A stretch of DNA of 64,000 bases, taken from NCBI GenBank assembly GCA_039801725.1, contig JBDRVE010000004.1:6992-70991 (forward strand), written 5' to 3'. This DNA comes from a candidate division WOR-3 bacterium (GTDB lineage: Bacteria; Hydrothermota; Tepidihabitantia; Tepidihabitantales; DTDR01). The notes below the pieces were generated by a model. That model made no database searches. It was not told the origin of the DNA and saw nothing but the letters and a program-made list of their open reading frames with translations. The position numbers and the translations under genes are program-made. Of the stretch, positions 15,800 to 62,146 are shown piece by piece (position 1 is the stretch's first letter; the number at the start of each line of letters is the position of its first letter).

Positions 15800-17130
15800 T
15801 TTTGGATTATCTTCTGTTTAATTTCTAATTTTGTTATCCTAAAAATCAAAAAATAACAATTAATTAAGTCATTGTTTTTTAGTAAAAATTTTTTAAGAAT
15901 TTTATCTTTAAAATAATTTATCGCTATTCGTGTAATTGGTTAAAACATCGTTACTAGCCATAAAGTGACAATAATCAGGAGCATAATAATCTAAAATAAT
16001 AACCGGAAAAATTAGCAAAATTTTCATTTAGATGAGTTAATCCTAAAGATTTAAGCTTTTCTAATGGAGTTAAATTATTAATACAATAGCCAAAAATGGG
16101 GTCTTTTGGTATTATAATATATCTGCCATTTCTGTGTTTCTTTAAGAAAATGGGAGCAATTTTTAAAAGTTGGTATCAAAGGAATATAAAATTCTTCGTC
16201 ATCGGTTTTATGCGACCTTTCTACCCTTCCTTGATATCCTTTCCTTCCTTTTGGTGCCTTTCCTAAAACAGCACCATAAATTTTATACCGCCTCTCATTA
16301 ATTAATCTCAATTTATGAGGATCATCACCGCCAAATTCCTTACCCCAATCCTCCTGCCAAAATACTTCTTTATCTATTCCCCAACATCTTAGCCACATCA
16401 TTACCAACCCAACAAAAAGAAAGCCGTTCTCCTGATTTAAATTATAACTATTAGGAAATAAATCTAAATCTGGAAATACTTTCACAAAATTTCCATTGGT
16501 ATATTGGTAGTTTAAGAAGAGAAAATATTCGGCATAATTCAGTTCCTAATGTTCCCTTATCCAAAATATCTTTGGTATCTACTTGAACATAGGTAAAAGG
16601 TTTTTTCATTTCATAACTCCAAGATGCTGAATAAAATCTTTTTCTTTCTTTTCTTTTTTCTTTCTCCTATTTTACCCGAAAGACATTTCTTTACTCTCCA
16701 TTCGTTTAAATTAAGTTTCAAAGCAATCCTTTTTTCCCAATTAGTTTTCTTATATAATTCCAGTATTTTCTCTTGGATTTCTTTAGGAATTCTTTTAGGT
16801 GAATTATGTGGCTTTCTTGTGAGTTCTTTAAGACTATCTTCTCCTTTTTCTTTGTATCTTTTTTATCCATTTTCTTAGGGTATTTCAGGAGACTCTGTAT
16901 TTTCTACTGATTTGGCTTATATTTTTACCTTTGTTGTATTCTTCTATCATTTTTACTTTTTACTTTTGTATGGAACCATAGGCGTCCCTTTTTAATTTCT
17001 TTATTTTCTTAATTCTTCTTGGGACGCCTATTATTTTAAGAAACTTATTGAATAATTTCAACACATCTTCTACCTCAATACCCTTATTAACCTGGTAACC
17101 ATGTCTTACCACAATTACTTTTTTGATCAT
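15800..17130 (-). mobile_element. Degenerate insertion sequence (IS481-like). Boundaries are approximate.
   Basis: Non-coding AT-rich flanks surround the transposase pseudogene. Terminal inverted repeats could not be identified by eye. Confidence 0.4.
16078..17120 (-). pseudogene. IS481-family (rve/DDE integrase) transposase, multiply frameshifted or stop-interrupted remnant.
   Basis: On the minus strand: an N-terminal HTH piece (MIKKVIVVRHGYQ..., EEYNKGKNISQISRKYRVS); an RPH-like segment (KELTRKPHNSPKRIPKEIQEKILELYKK) in another frame; and a DDE core (TYVQVDTKDI... then GRVERSHKTDDEEF...YNTKRPH) in two further frames. The plus-strand ORF 16624..16878 is antisense to it and judged spurious. 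Confidence 0.6.
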
Positions 17131-20225: not shown

Positions 20226-21407
20226 TTAGATTGTCAATCTTTTGATGAGAATTGTTGCATAGGAACCAGCTGGTAATATAAAATTTAAAATAATTTTATA
20301 TTTTCCCTTATATAACTCATCAGGCAATAAATCACTGGTCTTCATTTGGGTAGGTAAAATTATTGCTTTTCTTAAATAAGGCTTGAAATAGAGGCCACGG
20401 ATGCTCAATTTTATTTTAAGGTCTTTTAAAGAAAACCCATCTTTTTTTAGAACTTCTTCCATAATATTAATAATTTCGTTTTTTTCTTTTATTTTGGGAG
20501 AAGGTGCTGGAATAAAGAGATTTAATAATTTTTCTTTAAAGGAAGCTGGTAAAGTTTTATAAAAATATAATTCACCAAAACTGTATCTTACAGGAAAAAT
20601 CGAAATAGACAGATTTTTTAGATACAAATTTAAGGTTTCGTTCCAAATATAAGCCTGATAAGCATTAACAAAAATTTTCAGAAGTTCTAAAGGAATTTTT
20701 TTAATAGCTCCTTTATAGTCTGTTGGATTATTTATTAGATAATTTATAACTGGCAAATACTCCCGAATTGCCAAATTTTTTGCTTCCTCCCATTTTCCCC
20801 AATTTTCTCTCAAAAATTTTTTTAATTTTTTAATTTTACTTTCGTCAAAAGAAGAAGGAGTAGCAAGAAAAAGTTTCAAAGCCTTTTCATAATTCTTTTT
20901 TATTAAATAACAAGCAATAAATCCTTGTTTGTGCCGTGCACTCCCCATTCTCTGTTCGTCATAAAAATTTGGTAAACCATTAATCCTTGCTTCCCAAAAA
21001 TTATCAATCATTCTTTCTCCTTCTTCTTTTTTTAAATCTCTGATAGTAATTTGAAAATAATTTCCTAATAAATCCTCTTTTTTTAGGGGTCTATCTAAAA
21101 AACCTAAGAGAGTTAAAGAAAAATTTTTTTCTTTTATCGTTTCTTTCTCTACTGTGTTAGAAGCTAAATATTGAAAAGCATAAGAATACCGGTCTTTTAA
21201 CCCTAAACGATAGATTTTATCAAATTTATATTTCTTTTGTAAAATATAGATAACATCTAGCGTATTAAAATTTTTCTTTTCTAATAAATAAACTGCATAT
21301 TCTCCTTTTTCTTGTAAAGATAAATTTACAATTTCTTTAACAAAAAAATCTTCTGGTTTTACTTTTACTTTTATAGGTTTACCAAAAAAGGAAATTTTTG
21401 TTGAAAT
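20226..21407 (-). CDS. truD: tRNA pseudouridine(13) synthase TruD. Start uncertain: no ATG, GTG or TTG is available.
   Basis: PEDFFVKE...GEYAVY...LGLKDRYS (catalytic Asp region) and LPNFYDEQRMG motifs. The reading frame is open from 21422 to 20226. The ORF track reports only from the internal Met at 21011. The nearest plausible start is ATT at 21407..21405. Confidence 0.7.
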   Translation of the reverse strand: MSTKISFFGKPIKVKVKPEDFFVKEIVNLSLQEKGEYAVYLLEKKNFNTLDVIYILQKKYKFDKIYRLGLKDRYSYAFQYLASNTVEKETIKEKNFSLTLLGFLDRPLKKEDLLGNYFQITIRDLKKEEGERMIDNFWEARINGLPNFYDEQRMGSARHKQGFIACYLIKKNYEKALKLFLATPSSFDESKIKKLKKFLRENWGKWEEAKNLAIREYLPVINYLINNPTDYKGAIKKIPLELLKIFVNAYQAYIWNETLNLYLKNLSISIFPVRYSFGELYFYKTLPASFKEKLLNLFIPAPSPKIKEKNEIINIMEEVLKKDGFSLKDLKIKLSIRGLYFKPYLRKAIILPTQMKTSDLLPDELYKGKYKIILNFILPAGSYATILIKRLTI

Positions 21408-23002
21408 TCTTCTTTCCGATAATCAGGTAAAATCTTGGGTGACTTCCTCTTCTCATCTACACCGTTTTCTTTCAATTCTTTATGATAGGTAATTAAATGG
21501 TTCAAAGTTAATTTCTTAATTGGTGGTAATTCTTTAAAAATTTCACCAGCCCTTTTACCTGCTCTTTTACCAAATACTAATATATCTAATAAGGAATTCC
21601 CCATTAAACGGTTTCTGCCGTGAACTCCACCACTTACTTCCCCACAAACTAATAACCCCAAAACATTTGTCTCACAATTTTCATCAATTAAAATCCCACC
21701 ATTCTGATAGTGTTGCGTTGGGTAAGTTAACACCGGCTCTTTCCTCATATCAATCCCAAAACGTAAAAATTGACGAAACATTGCAGGCAATTCTTTTTCA
21801 ATTGTGCCTTCGCCTTGAAGGATTTCAATTAAAGGAGTATCAAGCCACACACCATAATAACCGCCAGGTGTTTTTATACCTTTTCCTCGCAAACATTCTC
21901 TAATTATTGCCGAAGAGACTACATCTCTAGTTTCTAATGAATAAATAAACTGTTCACCATCACAATTTACTAACTGGGCACCTAAACTTCGTACCTTTTC
22001 AGTAATCAATTGTCCTAACATTTGCTCAGGAAAAGCCACACCCGTGGGATGATACTGGATCGTATCAAGATAGATAAATTTGGCACCAGCTCGATAGGCT
22101 AATACCAAGCCATCAGCAGTTGCTCCATAATGATTAGAGGTAGGAAATCCTTGGACATGTAATCTACCGGCACCACCAGTTGCCAAAATTGTTACTTTAC
22201 TTTTAACAATGATTAATTTGCCATTTTCCAAATTTAACAAAACAGCGCCACAGCATTTTCCATCTTCATCAGTTAATAGTTCAATCGCACAAGTAAATTC
22301 TAAGAAATTAATTTTTTTATTTAAAAATTCGTCTCTAATTACCCGCATTATCTCCATTCCGGTATAATCTTTACAAGTATGCATTCTCTTTCGAGAAGTA
22401 CCACCACCGTGAATAGTAATCATACTACCATCTTCTTTTTTATCAAACATTACTCCTAAATCTTCTAACCATTTGATAATTTTGGGACCATCGGTAACTA
22501 AAGTGTAAACCAACTTAGGAATATTTTTATATCCTCCGCCACCAATCACATCTAAATAATGAATAGCCGGGGAATCATTCTCCTTATCGGCTGCTTGGAT
22601 ACCTCCCTGCGCCATTGTAGTATTAGCATCACCAATTCTTAATTTAGTAACTAAAAGGATATTTTTTGTGTATTCATAGGCAGATAACGCTGCTGCCACA
22701 CCCGCTCCTCCGCCACCAATAATTAAAATATCCACATCATAATCAATATTTTCTAATTTAAAATTTTCTGGATTTAAATAAGAATAACTTTCTAAAATAT
22801 CAGCAATTTCATTAACAACCAAATCTCCTTTATTTACTCCCACTTTAATCTCTCGGACTGTTCCCGGTTTATAATCAGGATGATAGTTTTTTAAAAGTTC
22901 TTGCTTTTCTTCTGCTTTTAATTTAGGGAAAATCTCCTTTCTTCTTCTCTCCCGAGTACTTTCTACTTTTTTTATTGACTCTTTCATATAATCAAAATAC
23001 AT
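21371..23002 (-). CDS. Succinate dehydrogenase/fumarate reductase-type flavoprotein subunit. FAD is probably non-covalent. Carries a 95-aa N-terminal extension.
   Basis: IIGGGGAG dinucleotide fold, GDANTTMAQGGI (Asp in place of the covalent-FAD His), HPTG, and RNRLMGNSLLDILVFGKRAG active-site/C-terminal motifs. 543 aa. Confidence 0.7.
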   Translation of the reverse strand: MYFDYMKESIKKVESTRERRRKEIFPKLKAEEKQELLKNYHPDYKPGTVREIKVGVNKGDLVVNEIADILESYSYLNPENFKLENIDYDVDILIIGGGGAGVAAALSAYEYTKNILLVTKLRIGDANTTMAQGGIQAADKENDSPAIHYLDVIGGGGYKNIPKLVYTLVTDGPKIIKWLEDLGVMFDKKEDGSMITIHGGGTSRKRMHTCKDYTGMEIMRVIRDEFLNKKINFLEFTCAIELLTDEDGKCCGAVLLNLENGKLIIVKSKVTILATGGAGRLHVQGFPTSNHYGATADGLVLAYRAGAKFIYLDTIQYHPTGVAFPEQMLGQLITEKVRSLGAQLVNCDGEQFIYSLETRDVVSSAIIRECLRGKGIKTPGGYYGVWLDTPLIEILQGEGTIEKELPAMFRQFLRFGIDMRKEPVLTYPTQHYQNGGILIDENCETNVLGLLVCGEVSGGVHGRNRLMGNSLLDILVFGKRAGKRAGEIFKELPPIKKLTLNHLITYHKELKENGVDEKRKSPKILPDYRKEEFQQKFPFLVNL

Positions 23003-23022
23003 TGAATACCTCCTTAATTATA

Positions 23023-23694
23023 TTAAGGCTCAATCTCTCTTTTCTCATATAGTTCTTTCAACTTTTCGACAGGCATCTTCATCAATTCTTGTAAATCCTT
23101 CTCAAATTTCCCATCCTCAATTTCCTTTATTCTTTTTTCTAAATCTTTTGCTTTTCTTTGAATTAATCGACCATAAATCCTTCTTCCTAAAAGGCCCACG
23201 TAATATTGCACAATTTCCGCTGGACAACGAGAGGCACATAAACCACACATAATACAATCAAAAGATAATTCAGCAACTTTTTTAACATCTCCCCTTATTG
23301 CTGCATTCACGTATTCCATAACTTTTAAATCTTGCGGACAGACTCGATTACAACTACCACAGGAAATACATCTTAAAATTTCAGGATAGTATTTTATAAA
23401 GATTTGAGTATCATAATCCAATTCTTCGAGATTATAAAGTGCTTTGTTAGCAGGATAGAAAGGAATTTGAGCTAAATACATTCCGTCTTCCACAGTGGTC
23501 TGACAAGCTAAACCAACTTTTAAACGAAAAGAATCTTTCTTACGATAGACAGTCGAACAAGCGCCACAAAAACCACCGCGACATCCTGCACCACGAATCA
23601 AAAGAAATCCGCAGTATTCTAATGCTCGCATAATTGTTAAACCTTCGGGTACCAAATACTCTTTTCCCATTATATAAATTTTTACTTCTTTCAT
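23023..23694 (-). CDS. SdhB/FrdB-like iron-sulfur subunit with a [2Fe-2S] cluster and two [4Fe-4S] motifs.
   Basis: CRGGFCGACS...C (plant-type 2Fe-2S), CISCGSCNRVCP and CIMCGLCASRCP. 223 aa with a Lys/Glu-rich C-terminal tail. Confidence 0.65.
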   Translation of the reverse strand: MKEVKIYIMGKEYLVPEGLTIMRALEYCGFLLIRGAGCRGGFCGACSTVYRKKDSFRLKVGLACQTTVEDGMYLAQIPFYPANKALYNLEELDYDTQIFIKYYPEILRCISCGSCNRVCPQDLKVMEYVNAAIRGDVKKVAELSFDCIMCGLCASRCPAEIVQYYVGLLGRRIYGRLIQRKAKDLEKRIKEIEDGKFEKDLQELMKMPVEKLKELYEKREIEP

Positions 23695-23708
23695 ATTTTT
23701 AACTTTAT

Positions 23709-24266
23709 TTATGCTTTAGCATACTTTTTAACACCCATTTCATACAAGTCATTACCATAAATATCATTAATCACAATTACCGGAAAATCTTCCACTACTA
23801 ATTCGGAAATTGCCTCCGGACCTAAATCTTCATAAGCAATTATTTTGGCACTCTTTATTTTCTTCATCGTTAAAGCCGCGACACCTCCAATCGCACCAAA
23901 ATAAACTCCTTTATACTGCATCATTGCTTTTTTTACTGCTTCGCTCCTATTGCCTTTTCCTATCATTCCTTTTAAACCATTGGCCAATAAAATTGGTGTA
24001 TAAGGATCCATCCTTCCGGAGGTGGTTGGACCTGCTGGACCAATAGGATAGCCTGGTTTTGCCGGCGCAGGACCTACATAATAAATTATTGCTCCTTTTA
24101 ATTCAAAAGGTAACTTTTCTTTTTTTTCGATCGCTTCTACCAATCTCTTATGGGCTAAATCTCTTGCGGAATAGATAACTCCGTTTATTAAAACCTGATC
24201 CCCTGCCTTCAAATTTTCCACTATTTCATCGGTTAGCGGAGTTACAATTCTTTTTACTTCCATCAT
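23709..24266 (-). CDS. fumB: Class I fumarate hydratase beta subunit (Fe-S hydro-lyase, tartrate/fumarate beta-type catalytic domain).
   Basis: GPAPAKPGYPIGPAGPTTSGRMD and GAIGGVAAL motifs. 185 aa. AGGAGGA ribosome-binding site. No alpha-subunit gene is adjacent. Confidence 0.75.
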   Translation of the reverse strand: MMEVKRIVTPLTDEIVENLKAGDQVLINGVIYSARDLAHKRLVEAIEKKEKLPFELKGAIIYYVGPAPAKPGYPIGPAGPTTSGRMDPYTPILLANGLKGMIGKGNRSEAVKKAMMQYKGVYFGAIGGVAALTMKKIKSAKIIAYEDLGPEAISELVVEDFPVIVINDIYGNDLYEMGVKKYAKA

Positions 24267-27722: not shown

Positions 27723-29030
27723 TTATTCAATCTTTTTAAGGAAATAAACTCGATACCAAGGATGAGAAAATATTGGTTCAAACATAAGATTCTCTTCTTC
27801 TAACGTATGAACACGAAATTGAGAAAGAAAATCAAAAAACGTTTCGACACCGGCAAAATCTTTTAACAAATAAAATACTAAAGAATTTTCGTAATCTTTT
27901 ATATTTTTCTTTAAAGCAATAATTTCTCGAAAACTTTCTAAATTATTACTTATCTCTGATTTTGAAAGATAATATTCAAAAATAACTTTTCTTCTAAAGG
28001 GTATAATTAAATATTTCGGTTTTAAAGTTAATAAATAATTTTTTATTACGGGAATAGAATTTTCGATTGCTATCATTTTATCTTCTTCATCTTTTAAATT
28101 CCATTTGATATTCTCTATCTTATCAATTGGTGGATTTATGAAAAAAAGGAGTAAAAACAAAATTATCGGTAATAAAAATTTAATATTTTTCTTCTTAAAA
28201 AAGATATCAAAAGTTTGGAATAAAAAGAAACTCAAAAAAAACAAAGATAGTAAAAAGAATCTTCTCATTGGTAAAACTCCGCCACGAAAGGAAAGAAGAA
28301 AATAAAAGACAAAGGGCGAAAAAATTGCCGCCAATAAAATCAAATAACTTTCAAGATTATTTCGACAATGATATATTGTTGAAATTATTGCCAAGAAACA
28401 GATTATCAGAAATAACCAGCCTGTTTGACTGCTAAGATCTTTAAAAACTATTGGAAAAAAATTTTGTGGTTTTACAAGAGGAATTCCCGTAATAATTGGA
28501 TAACGAGCAGTTATAATAAAAGAATAAAAGGGGGTAGAAAAAGCACGATAATCAAAAAAAAGCCAAACAACAGGAGCTAAAAAGGGCAAAAATAAAAATA
28601 ACGATTTTTTTTCTTTCCAAAAAAATACCGGTAATAAAAAGATAAAAGCGATAAACCAAGCATCCGGTCTTATTAAACCAGCAATAAGATTTAATACTCC
28701 GTATTTTAAATAATCTTTTATCAAGAAATAATAGAGAGAAATAATCATTATTGGAATATATAAAAACACCCAATACACGCTTAAAAGATTTTGCCAACTA
28801 TCTTCAAAGAAAAAAAGAGAGTAAAGGAAAGCCAAAAAACCAGCAAAGAAAGAATTAGAAAATTTTTCACTAATTTTTAAAAAATAAAAAAAACCTAACG
28901 AAATTAAAAAAGAGATAATGAGATAATTAATAAAAGAAGAAAAAAGATAACAGAAAAAAGCCATTAAAGGTTTTGGTGTTTCCGATAAAAAATAGGGGGG
29001 CGATTGGGAGATAATAAAATATTGAAACAT
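27723..29030 (-). CDS. Polytopic membrane protein, possibly a GT-C-type glycosyltransferase. Function unknown.
   Basis: 435 aa with about 10 predicted TM helices and a C-terminal soluble domain. Only a weak resemblance to PMT/ArnT-like enzymes. Confidence 0.35.
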   Translation of the reverse strand: MFQYFIISQSPPYFLSETPKPLMAFFCYLFSSFINYLIISFLISLGFFYFLKISEKFSNSFFAGFLAFLYSLFFFEDSWQNLLSVYWVFLYIPIMIISLYYFLIKDYLKYGVLNLIAGLIRPDAWFIAFIFLLPVFFWKEKKSLFLFLPFLAPVVWLFFDYRAFSTPFYSFIITARYPIITGIPLVKPQNFFPIVFKDLSSQTGWLFLIICFLAIISTIYHCRNNLESYLILLAAIFSPFVFYFLLSFRGGVLPMRRFFLLSLFFLSFFLFQTFDIFFKKKNIKFLLPIILFLLLFFINPPIDKIENIKWNLKDEEDKMIAIENSIPVIKNYLLTLKPKYLIIPFRRKVIFEYYLSKSEISNNLESFREIIALKKNIKDYENSLVFYLLKDFAGVETFFDFLSQFRVHTLEEENLMFEPIFSHPWYRVYFLKKIE

Positions 29031-29185
29031 CCTGCGATAAGTGATATTTACACTTTTTCCTAAATATCGGTACTGAAGGTTTAAAAAAAGTGGTAATAGT
29101 ATTAAAATTAAAAATAAAAATATAGTACTACATAATTTTAATTTAAAATCAAAAGATAATTTGGAAATCTTTAAAATCTTAACCC

Positions 29186-29944
29186 CTATTCTTTGGCGGC
29201 AAATTTTTCTAAAATATTTTCGTTAATATCAAAATTGGAATAAACCTGTTGAACTTCTTCTAATTCTTCAATTGCGGAAATCAATTTTAATATCTTTTCC
29301 GCCACTTTTTCATCAGTTATTGTTACGGTAGTTAAGGGTAATTTTGTTAATTCTGCGTGGTCAATAGGAACATTATTTTCCTTTAACCTTTCTTTTACTT
29401 TGGAAAAATCTTCTAAAGAAGTAATTATTTGATAAGAACTTTCATCGACTTTTATATCCTCCGCCCCTGCTTCCAAAGCAATATTAAAAATTGTTTCTTC
29501 ATCTACTTTTTCTTTACTTACCATAATTACTCCTTTAGGTCTAAATTGCCAAGATACCGAACCTGCTTGGCCTAGATTACCACCGTATTTAGAAAAAATA
29601 TGCCGAATATCATTAACTGTTCGATTGCGATTATCAGTAAGAGTCTTAACAATAATTGCTACTCCCTCTGGACCGTAACCTTCAAATTCGATCTCTTCAT
29701 AAACTACTCCAGGAAGTTCACCGGTTCCTCTTTTTATAGCTCTTTCAATATTCTCACTGGGCATATTCGCCTCTTTTGCTGCCTCGATCGCCATTCTTAA
29801 GCGAGGATTGAAATCAGGATTCCCCCCTCCTAATCGCGCCGCCGTGGTTATTTCTCTTGCTAATTTAGAAAATAACTTACCTCTCTGTTGATCCACCTTA
29901 GCCTTCTTATGTTTTATTTGTGCCCATTTAGAATGGCCAGCCAT
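29186..29944 (-). CDS. yebC: YebC/PmpR family DNA-binding transcriptional regulator.
   Basis: MAGHSKWAQIKHKKAKVDQQRGKLFSKLAREI... canonical YebC N-terminus. 252 aa. Confidence 0.9.
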   Translation of the reverse strand: MAGHSKWAQIKHKKAKVDQQRGKLFSKLAREITTAARLGGGNPDFNPRLRMAIEAAKEANMPSENIERAIKRGTGELPGVVYEEIEFEGYGPEGVAIIVKTLTDNRNRTVNDIRHIFSKYGGNLGQAGSVSWQFRPKGVIMVSKEKVDEETIFNIALEAGAEDIKVDESSYQIITSLEDFSKVKERLKENNVPIDHAELTKLPLTTVTITDEKVAEKILKLISAIEELEEVQQVYSNFDINENILEKFAAKE

Positions 29945-34198: not shown

Positions 34199-34714
34199 TT
34201 ATTCACCCAAAAAAATTGTGAATCTTTTTCCACCTTTTTCTACAATTACTCTATCTTTCTCAATAGCAACTATCTTTTTTCCATCAATAATGTCCCCAAC
34301 ACGAACTACTTGATTGTTAATAACTGCGTAAGCCTCGTTTTTACTTATGGTAATTGCTGAAACAACCAACGATTTCATTTCAGCAGCATAAGAAAAATCT
34401 CTTACAAAAGGATCCTCTCCCCATTTCTCAGTATCTTCTTCTATCTTGGCGGTACCCATCGGTTTAAACTCTAAAGTCTCTTTTTTTGCCGAAATTTTAA
34501 CGACAGTTAATGTTTCCTTTTTAACCACTGAAGGAACTATCGATTCTTTTTTAATTTCTTGTTTTTGCAAAACTGCCAATGTTTCTTGTTTTACTTTTGA
34601 CTTCGTAATTCTAGTAACCGAAGTAATTTTTGATTTGGGTTTTGGCCGCAATAAAGTAAAAAAAATCAAAACGACTACTAAAATTCCAATCAAAATAATT
34701 AACCTTTGTCGCAT
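34199..34714 (-). CDS. PilP-like pilus assembly protein (N-terminal TM anchor plus a C-terminal beta domain).
   Basis: TM helix, then a C-terminal AYAVINNQVVRVGDIIDGKKIVAIEKDRVIVEKGGKRFTIF domain. Paralogous to the C-terminus of the adjacent 34750..35286 product. Position between pilO and pilQ. Confidence 0.4.
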   Translation of the reverse strand: MRQRLIILIGILVVVLIFFTLLRPKPKSKITSVTRITKSKVKQETLAVLQKQEIKKESIVPSVVKKETLTVVKISAKKETLEFKPMGTAKIEEDTEKWGEDPFVRDFSYAAEMKSLVVSAITISKNEAYAVINNQVVRVGDIIDGKKIVAIEKDRVIVEKGGKRFTIFLGE

Positions 34715-61688: not shown

Positions 61689-62146
61689 TAAGGTGAACGG
61701 GATATATATCTTACACCAACCTTAACTTTTTCCACTTCCTTTTCGGTGATAAATCTCAAAGCACCAGTCGCACAAGAATTGGCACATCTTGGACCTTGCT
61801 CATTTTGATAGCAGAGATTACATTTTTGGGTTACATGGTTAAGTAAACTATTTTCAATCACACCAAAAGGACAGGCCAAAGCACAACTTTTACAACCAAC
61901 ACAATGAAAACTTGCCTGAAAGATAATATTTCTCTCTTTGTCCCTTTTAATCACATCAAAAGGACAGGCAGCAGCACACAAAGGCTCTTCACAATGCTTA
62001 CAAGCATGCGATAAGATAACCGTTGGTTTAATCTCATTAATTGTTATCCTTCTTTCATTCTCAAAATAACTACGACAAGCCGATTCACAAGACCGACAAC
62101 CAATACACAAATCTAAATCTAAAAAGAGATATCTCCTTTCACTCAT
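61673..62146 (-). CDS. HycB-like 4Fe-4S ferredoxin electron-transfer subunit.
   Basis: Four Cys clusters (CIGCRSCESAC, CKHCEEPLCAAACP, CVGCKSCALACP, CNLCYQ...C). 157 aa. Confidence 0.7.
   Translation of the reverse strand: MSERRYLFLDLDLCIGCRSCESACRSYFENERRITINEIKPTVILSHACKHCEEPLCAAACPFDVIKRDKERNIIFQASFHCVGCKSCALACPFGVIENSLLNHVTQKCNLCYQNEQGPRCANSCATGALRFITEKEVEKVKVGVRYISRSPYWRRV

Follow-up and report, generated by a model that had tools for sequence, protein, structure and literature searches.

Within the window, a 64,000-nt stretch of contig JBDRVE010000004.1 (GenBank assembly GCA_039801725.1) from a candidate division WOR-3 bacterium, the gene for the tRNA pseudouridine-13 synthase TruD lacks a canonical start codon at its N terminus. 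We conclude that this truD gene is probably intact and functional, and that it probably starts at a near-cognate AUA codon (ATA, 21374..21372, minus strand) coupled to translation termination on the flavoprotein gene immediately upstream. As inferred here, the truD coding sequence (CDS) occupies 20226..21374 on the minus strand and comprises 382 codons followed by a TAA stop (20228..20226). Its first codon is fused to the TAA stop of the flavoprotein gene (21371..21373, minus strand), giving two co-directional genes with a 4-nt overlap, ATAA (21374..21371), which differs from the common ATGA stop/start overlap only in having A for G. In support of the reading, the ATA lies at the ortholog start position and is conserved, no canonical codon offers an alternative, the N-terminal domain is under purifying selection, and the sequence further upstream shows no TruD coding constraint. 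On this evidence, translation would initiate at the AUA, would depend on upstream termination and would be low.

A truD frame without a canonical start

On the minus strand, the truD frame opens at 21422, directly after an in-frame TGA (21425..21423), and runs to the TAA at 20228..20226. The first ATG, GTG, TTG or CTG in this frame is the ATG at 21011..21009, and only ATT, ATA and ATC are found 5′ of it. Our reading of the minus strand bears out a first-pass annotation of this DNA, which had described a frame open from 21422 to 20226 with none of the four codons before 21011, and had placed the N-terminal catalytic region 5′ of that ATG; the catalytic Asp (D61, in the motif GLKDRYS) is encoded at 21192..21194 on the minus strand. 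The annotation had also reported an overlap of about 12–17 codons with the flavoprotein gene, which holds for the open frame only, the real overlap of the CDSs being 4 nt.

By its Pfam match and catalytic motif, the predicted product is a bona fide TruD-family tRNA pseudouridine-13 synthase. The Pfam family TruD (PF01142) is matched with E=1.9e-60 and 205.4 bits against a cut-off of 27, over profile positions 17–411 of 412. The match covers residues 18–395 of the 398-residue frame and begins directly after the ATA at 21374; similarly, position 3 of the NCBIfam profile NF002160 aligns with residue 1 of the ATA-start protein, which would begin (f)M-KVKVKPEDFFVK. As in the rest of the family (structures 1z2z and 1sb7), the Pfam match is full length and the catalytic Asp sits in a G-x-K-D motif. 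K60, D61 and R62 are invariant in an alignment of 12 orthologs; among solved structures, 1z2z is closest in sequence (E=5.8e-35). Unlike the Escherichia coli and archaeal enzymes, the window protein lacks an N-terminal lead of about 20 residues and begins MK[IVL]K-x-x-P-E-D-F, a short N terminus that marks a subgroup from WOR-3 and Spirochaetota. It falls short of the NCBIfam equivalog cut-offs (NF002160, 278.1 versus 428 bits; TIGR00094, 137.1 versus 172.2 bits), and we class the predicted protein in a divergent TruD subgroup; NCBI nevertheless gives sister proteins the name TruD.

The length of the run without canonical start codons is not in itself unusual. ATG, GTG, TTG and CTG together have a per-codon frequency of 4.3%, which gives p ~0.005 for a run of 121 codons; in this 31% GC genome such a run is unremarkable, because internal runs of 137–169 codons occur in other genes of the window. 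The exceptional feature is that the canonical codon is missing at the N terminus: among the window's roughly 60 long open reading frames (ORFs), the lead that precedes a canonical start codon is longest by far in truD. In ten further ORFs with leads of 18–29 codons, the Pfam domains all begin after the first canonical start, so non-canonical starts are not rampant in the genome. An alternative genetic code in which the TGA at 21425 is read through does not help, as the frame 5′ of it meets another TGA and then a TAA with no ATG. A search of the window for tRNA genes, with an unusual initiator in mind, found none.

Conservation of the start position

We collected TruD orthologs through a protein search, by scanning both the species representatives of GTDB and JGI metagenomes, and through contig look-ups; those in the protein search come almost exclusively from candidate division WOR-3. 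Three NCBI-annotated proteins from sister metagenome-assembled genomes (MAGs), one 99% identical to the window protein (P0001) and two 81% identical (P0002 and P0003), are 382 aa long, begin MKVKVKPEDF and are already annotated from an ATA codon. All orthologs at ≥74% identity have ATA at the start position (the window, L001–L007, L014–L017, L097, L100 and L104), apart from L008/L013, where ATT takes its place. This ATA/ATT clade spans about 7 species-level lineages and at least 13 independent assemblies, with ATT in a single lineage, and at every one of these loci the same flavoprotein gene lies immediately upstream. By contrast, orthologs at ≤59% identity, from more than 35 WOR-3 and Spirochaetota loci (L009–L012, L018–L052 and L098–L103 other than L100), carry ATG or GTG at exactly this alignment position and have other upstream neighbours, with an ordinary ATGA overlap in L012. 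Their proteins begin M/V-K-[IVL]-K-...-P-[ED]-D-F.

An ortholog alignment, which the first-pass annotation had proposed as a check on the start, thus places every start at the codon aligned with ATA 21374..21372. No ortholog begins at the Met encoded at 21011, a possibility that annotation had considered, and this residue is Ile or Val in relatives. The tripeptide GKP, which it had taken to be conserved, is NKL, DKP or SKS in relatives and lies outside the Pfam alignment.

Gene calls for other close relatives tell a similar story. The Logan, JGI and ENA calls for P0004–P0007 (loci L005–L008) start at internal TTG codons and give proteins of 313–365 aa that have lost 17–69 N-terminal residues, P0007 also lacking the catalytic Asp. 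These truncated calls from other pipelines suggest that a canonical start is lacking there too, and the ATA/ATT start accounts for what is a systematic mis-annotation. For annotation, the practical consequence is that Prodigal-type gene callers truncate truD to 261–365 aa, at the cost of the catalytic domain, whereas the NCBI pipeline already calls the ATA start.

Substitution patterns mark the same boundary. Across six lineages, the 51 nt 5′ of the ATA show 5 synonymous and 93 nonsynonymous changes when read in the TruD frame versus 59 synonymous and 31 nonsynonymous in the flavoprotein frame, so this stretch codes for the flavoprotein only. The part of the open frame that precedes the ATA (21375..21422, minus strand), which contains ATT codons at 21407..21405 and 21395..21393, is therefore an extension within the flavoprotein gene and not TruD coding sequence. 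Downstream, codons 2–121 of truD have ratios of nonsynonymous to synonymous substitution rates (dN/dS) of 0.06–0.16 at dS of 0.5–1.2, indistinguishable from the remainder of the gene, which argues for translation of a functional N-terminal catalytic domain in every lineage. The phylum is uncultured, and within it the ATA/stop arrangement has persisted despite considerable divergence (dS ~1). That ATGA is absent at this junction is statistically uninformative about selection against reversion to ATG, given a strong AT bias and ~8 lineages that are not independent.

We also considered and rejected an internal start at the first canonical ATG (21009..21011, minus strand; Met122). That Met is not conserved, the AAGGAG-like string before it (21022..21017) encodes a conserved EEGE, the N-terminal domain it would leave out is under purifying selection, and its product would lose the catalytic Asp.

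Proposed initiation at AUA and coupling to upstream termination

At the junction (...aaacctATAAaag...), the flavoprotein gene is read AAC CTA TAA and truD is read CCT ATA AAA, and relatives keep the sequence as cTATAAa or tTATAAa. The exception to the −4 overlap is L008/L013, where the change from ATA to ATT removed the TAA, leaving a flavoprotein longer by two codons whose stop lies 7 nt after the ATT. Four-nucleotide ATGA overlaps are the standard, dominant operon junction here, with at least 18 in the window. Examples lie at 2786, 9267, 13896, 48331 and 49952 on the plus strand and at 62146, 60762, 60352, 59924, 58749, 57634, 55754, 55224, 54452, 52956, 44321 and 4661 on the minus strand, including a long run of such overlaps through a Nuo/Mnh-like operon at ~52–63 kb. 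Their abundance suggests a heavy reliance on translational coupling.

Conventional initiation signals are missing at truD. No member of the clade has a motif resembling a Shine–Dalgarno (SD) sequence within 20 nt 5′ of the ATA; a subset of genes in the window, the flavoprotein gene among them, uses AAGGAGG, which forms a strong SD motif before the flavoprotein ATG. The RNA at the junction is A/U-rich, with a minimum free energy of −16.4 kcal/mol versus a mean of −15.25 for shuffled sequences (z=−0.40), and thus shows no structure beyond shuffled controls. Promoter matches directly 5′ of truD are at chance level, and the best promoter-like sites lie 5′ of the fumarase-beta gene three genes upstream, from which we take the fumarase-beta, Fe–S protein, flavoprotein and truD genes to form an operon. 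Elsewhere in the window, several genes outside the AAGGAGG subset carry a hexamer resembling TATAAT close to the ATG, a few nucleotides 5′ of it, such as 'ttattactataataatATG' (upstream regions considered include those of the ATGs at 34714, 26385, 40468, 47306 and 62146), which suggests leaderless or very short-leader mRNAs.

The mechanism we hold most likely is termination–reinitiation. Ribosomes terminating on the well-translated flavoprotein gene would already be positioned over the AUAA and could, using initiator tRNA, start again on the neighbouring AUA, giving a low, fixed output of TruD from the last gene of the operon. The junction may well have originated from an ancestral ATGA by a G-to-A change in an AT-rich lineage, which would turn ATG into ATA while keeping the upstream stop (TGA to TAA). 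This mechanism is the most economical, because a near-cognate codon without an SD motif would be a very poor de novo start, and it is consistent with the near-cognate start occurring only where truD overlaps the flavoprotein gene.

Both elements of the mechanism have precedents. In E. coli reporters, AUA, AUU, AUC and CUG initiate at about 1–2% of the AUG level (bioRxiv 10.1101/063800); near-cognate starts reach about 10–30% of AUG in Staphylococcus aureus reporters, and natural AUA starts are known in S. aureus infC, ccpN and citZ (PMC13009471). Similar to these genes and their counterparts, namely infC and pcnB in E. coli (AUU) and infC, ccpN and citZ in S. aureus and Bacillus subtilis (AUA), truD has a conserved near-cognate Ile start with no canonical alternative, and low initiation efficiency would be expected of it as well. 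Unlike them, it has no SD motif (the motif is extended in S. aureus), and its start codon overlaps an upstream stop. Further, the near-cognate start of infC serves IF3 autoregulation, and no regulatory logic of this kind is evident for a tRNA modification enzyme. Termination–reinitiation at overlapping stop/start pairs, sometimes without an SD motif, has been described (PMC6728339, PMC12548453, PMC3592434). The truD junction resembles the 4-nt AUGA coupled pairs (Huber et al. 2019, PMC6728339; reviewed in PMC12548453), for some of which the SD motif is dispensable, in lying on the same strand with a −4 overlap and a stop embedded in the start; it differs in that the restart codon would be AUA (AUAA), with coupling deduced from sequence. 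In the literature searched, we found no description of the ATA start of truD, although it is present in the NCBI annotation of sister MAGs.

Several points weigh against AUA initiation by coupling. The strong or extended SD that supports the weak codon in documented natural AUA and AUU starts, such as those of infC, ccpN and cvfC1, is absent at truD, and reinitiation at AUA specifically was not found in the literature searched. The A and T at the first two positions of the ATA codon are partly forced by the overlapping Leu and stop codons of the flavoprotein gene, so conservation of the codon alone is no proof of start function. The ATT at 21395..21393, 7 codons 5′ of the ATA, is also conserved, as the flavoprotein motif KFPF requires, and it remains a candidate start. 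Finally, the organism is uncultured, and the AUA start is a prediction from sequence.

Among the alternatives, the AUA might be used by de novo, uncoupled initiation that needs no SD motif and takes place where the RNA is A/U-rich and unstructured, as it does in SD-poor bacteria. Many genes of the window lack SD motifs, the junction has the required composition and lack of structure, and A/U-rich enhancers in E. coli act independently of both the SD and the identity of the start codon (PMC3592434). The change to ATT in L008, however, moved the stop by only 7 nt, near-cognate starts are confined to lineages in which truD overlaps the flavoprotein stop, and de novo initiation on such a codon without an SD is expected to be extremely weak. 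We consider this alternative unlikely.

Quite unlikely, too, is initiation at one of the upstream in-frame ATT codons (21407..21405 or 21395..21393), which would add 7–11 N-terminal residues. Both codons are in frame with truD and no stop intervenes, the ATT at 21395 is present in all clade members, and AUU is the best-documented non-canonical start in bacteria, through infC and pcnB (10.1101/063800). The first-pass annotation had favoured the ATT at 21407, but this codon is GTT in L004 and the 51 nt upstream of the ATA evolve as flavoprotein CDS; its proposal of rare initiation at an Ile codon with coupling or reinitiation appears right in kind, with ATA 21374..21372 as the probable codon in place of that ATT. 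Conservation of the ATT at 21395 is fully explained by KFPF, neither ATT has an SD at a suitable distance, orthologs all begin at the position aligned with the ATA, and the Pfam and NCBIfam profiles stop short of both codons.

A further possibility requires no start codon at all: programmed −1 frameshifting at T_TTT_TTG (21383..21389, minus strand) could append TruD to the C terminus of the flavoprotein. The truD frame is indeed −1 relative to the flavoprotein frame, and this formally slippery heptamer (X_XXY_YYZ) lies 9 nt before the flavoprotein stop, with T_TTT_TTA in L002. It is not conserved, however, being C_TTT_TTG in L004, T_TTC_TTG in L005/L006, C_TTT_TTA in L007 and A_TTT_TTA in L008, and TTT-TTR merely encodes a conserved Phe-Leu of the flavoprotein. 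No stimulatory structure is found 3′ of the heptamer by the folding comparison above, all other TruD proteins stand alone and begin at exactly the ATA-aligned codon, and frameshifting would leave as a coincidence the occurrence, at the Met1 position, of a codon one step from ATG. These points make a fusion highly improbable.

An assembly or sequencing indel, which the first-pass annotation had raised, or a decaying pseudogene, with a canonical start in another frame or only a Met122 fragment being made, is scarcely credible: a T6 homopolymer lies 10 nt 5′ of the ATA and an AAGGAG-like string precedes the ATG at 21011, but the same frame arrangement recurs in the at least 13 assemblies, from different samples and species, while the neighbouring T-run varies (T6, T5 or TTTCTT), which excludes an assembly indel, purifying selection acts on the N-terminal 120 codons as strongly as on the rest of truD, and a fragment from the non-conserved Met122 would lack Asp61.

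Termination–reinitiation at the AUA therefore remains our preferred account, and we regard truD as a case of near-cognate initiation codon usage whose uncommon configuration, an AUAA overlap without an SD, is conserved throughout a clade. It opens no new kind of system; its value would be as a clear-cut natural case of an AUA start that lacks an SD and is fused to the stop of the gene before it. If the coupling is real, termination–reinitiation can sustain a gene containing an essential domain on a near-cognate codon, and the case becomes a data point for models of start-codon selection and for the erosion of ATGA junctions under AT mutational pressure. A broader generalization is rather doubtful: ATAA and ATAG might be equivalents of ATGA, with SD-less reinitiation at AUA or AUU routine in the AT-rich WOR-3 clade, near-cognate starts recurrent and possibly selected for low, fixed expression ratios, and IF3 discrimination perhaps relaxed. 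There is a hint that truD may not be unique, because a second gene in the window (27723..29189) also has no canonical start.

Neighbouring genes and a second gene of this kind

The gene upstream of truD (21371..23002, minus strand) encodes a 543-aa FAD-binding flavoprotein of the fumarate reductase/L-aspartate oxidase family (PF00890, E=4e-68). Among NCBIfam profiles, TfrA matches it best, with a score under the curated cut-off, and this TfrA/NadB-like protein has an N-terminal extension of about 90 residues before the FAD domain. Preceding it on the minus strand are genes for an Fe–S protein (2Fe-2S/4Fe-4S; 23023..23694) and for the beta subunit of a class-I fumarate hydratase (fumarase-beta; 23709..24266), so that the operon order is fumarase-beta, Fe–S protein, flavoprotein and, last, truD, after which comes a convergent phosphoesterase gene. 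The cluster at 21371..24266, together with truD, is kept in all clade members. It resembles a soluble thiol-type fumarate reductase, with all NCBIfam scores below curated cut-offs.

The second gene without a canonical start (27723..29222, minus strand) encodes a conserved multi-pass membrane protein with no Pfam hit. The open frame has no ATG, GTG or TTG before the ATG at codon 64 (29030), and a conserved N-terminal transmembrane helix and the motif YLGKSVNITYR are encoded 5′ of it. There are two candidate starts: an ATA (29189..29187) that forms an ATAG overlap with the TAG stop of yebC/TACO1, the gene upstream, and an ATT (29177..29175) with an SD-like AGGGG 5 nt before it. At this junction (29175..29189), the SD-like motif and the ATT are conserved in L093 (1438–1560) and L094 (1301–1420); in L093, by contrast, the ATA does not lie in the reading frame, and that locus has in addition a TTG 11 codons further on. 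The NCBI annotation of a 100% identical protein, P0121, starts at an internal Met.

Elsewhere in the window, a short ORF at 16078..16545 (minus strand) matches an integrase core domain (rve_3) in its C-terminal part only, at profile positions 16–59 of 67, and is probably a transposase remnant.

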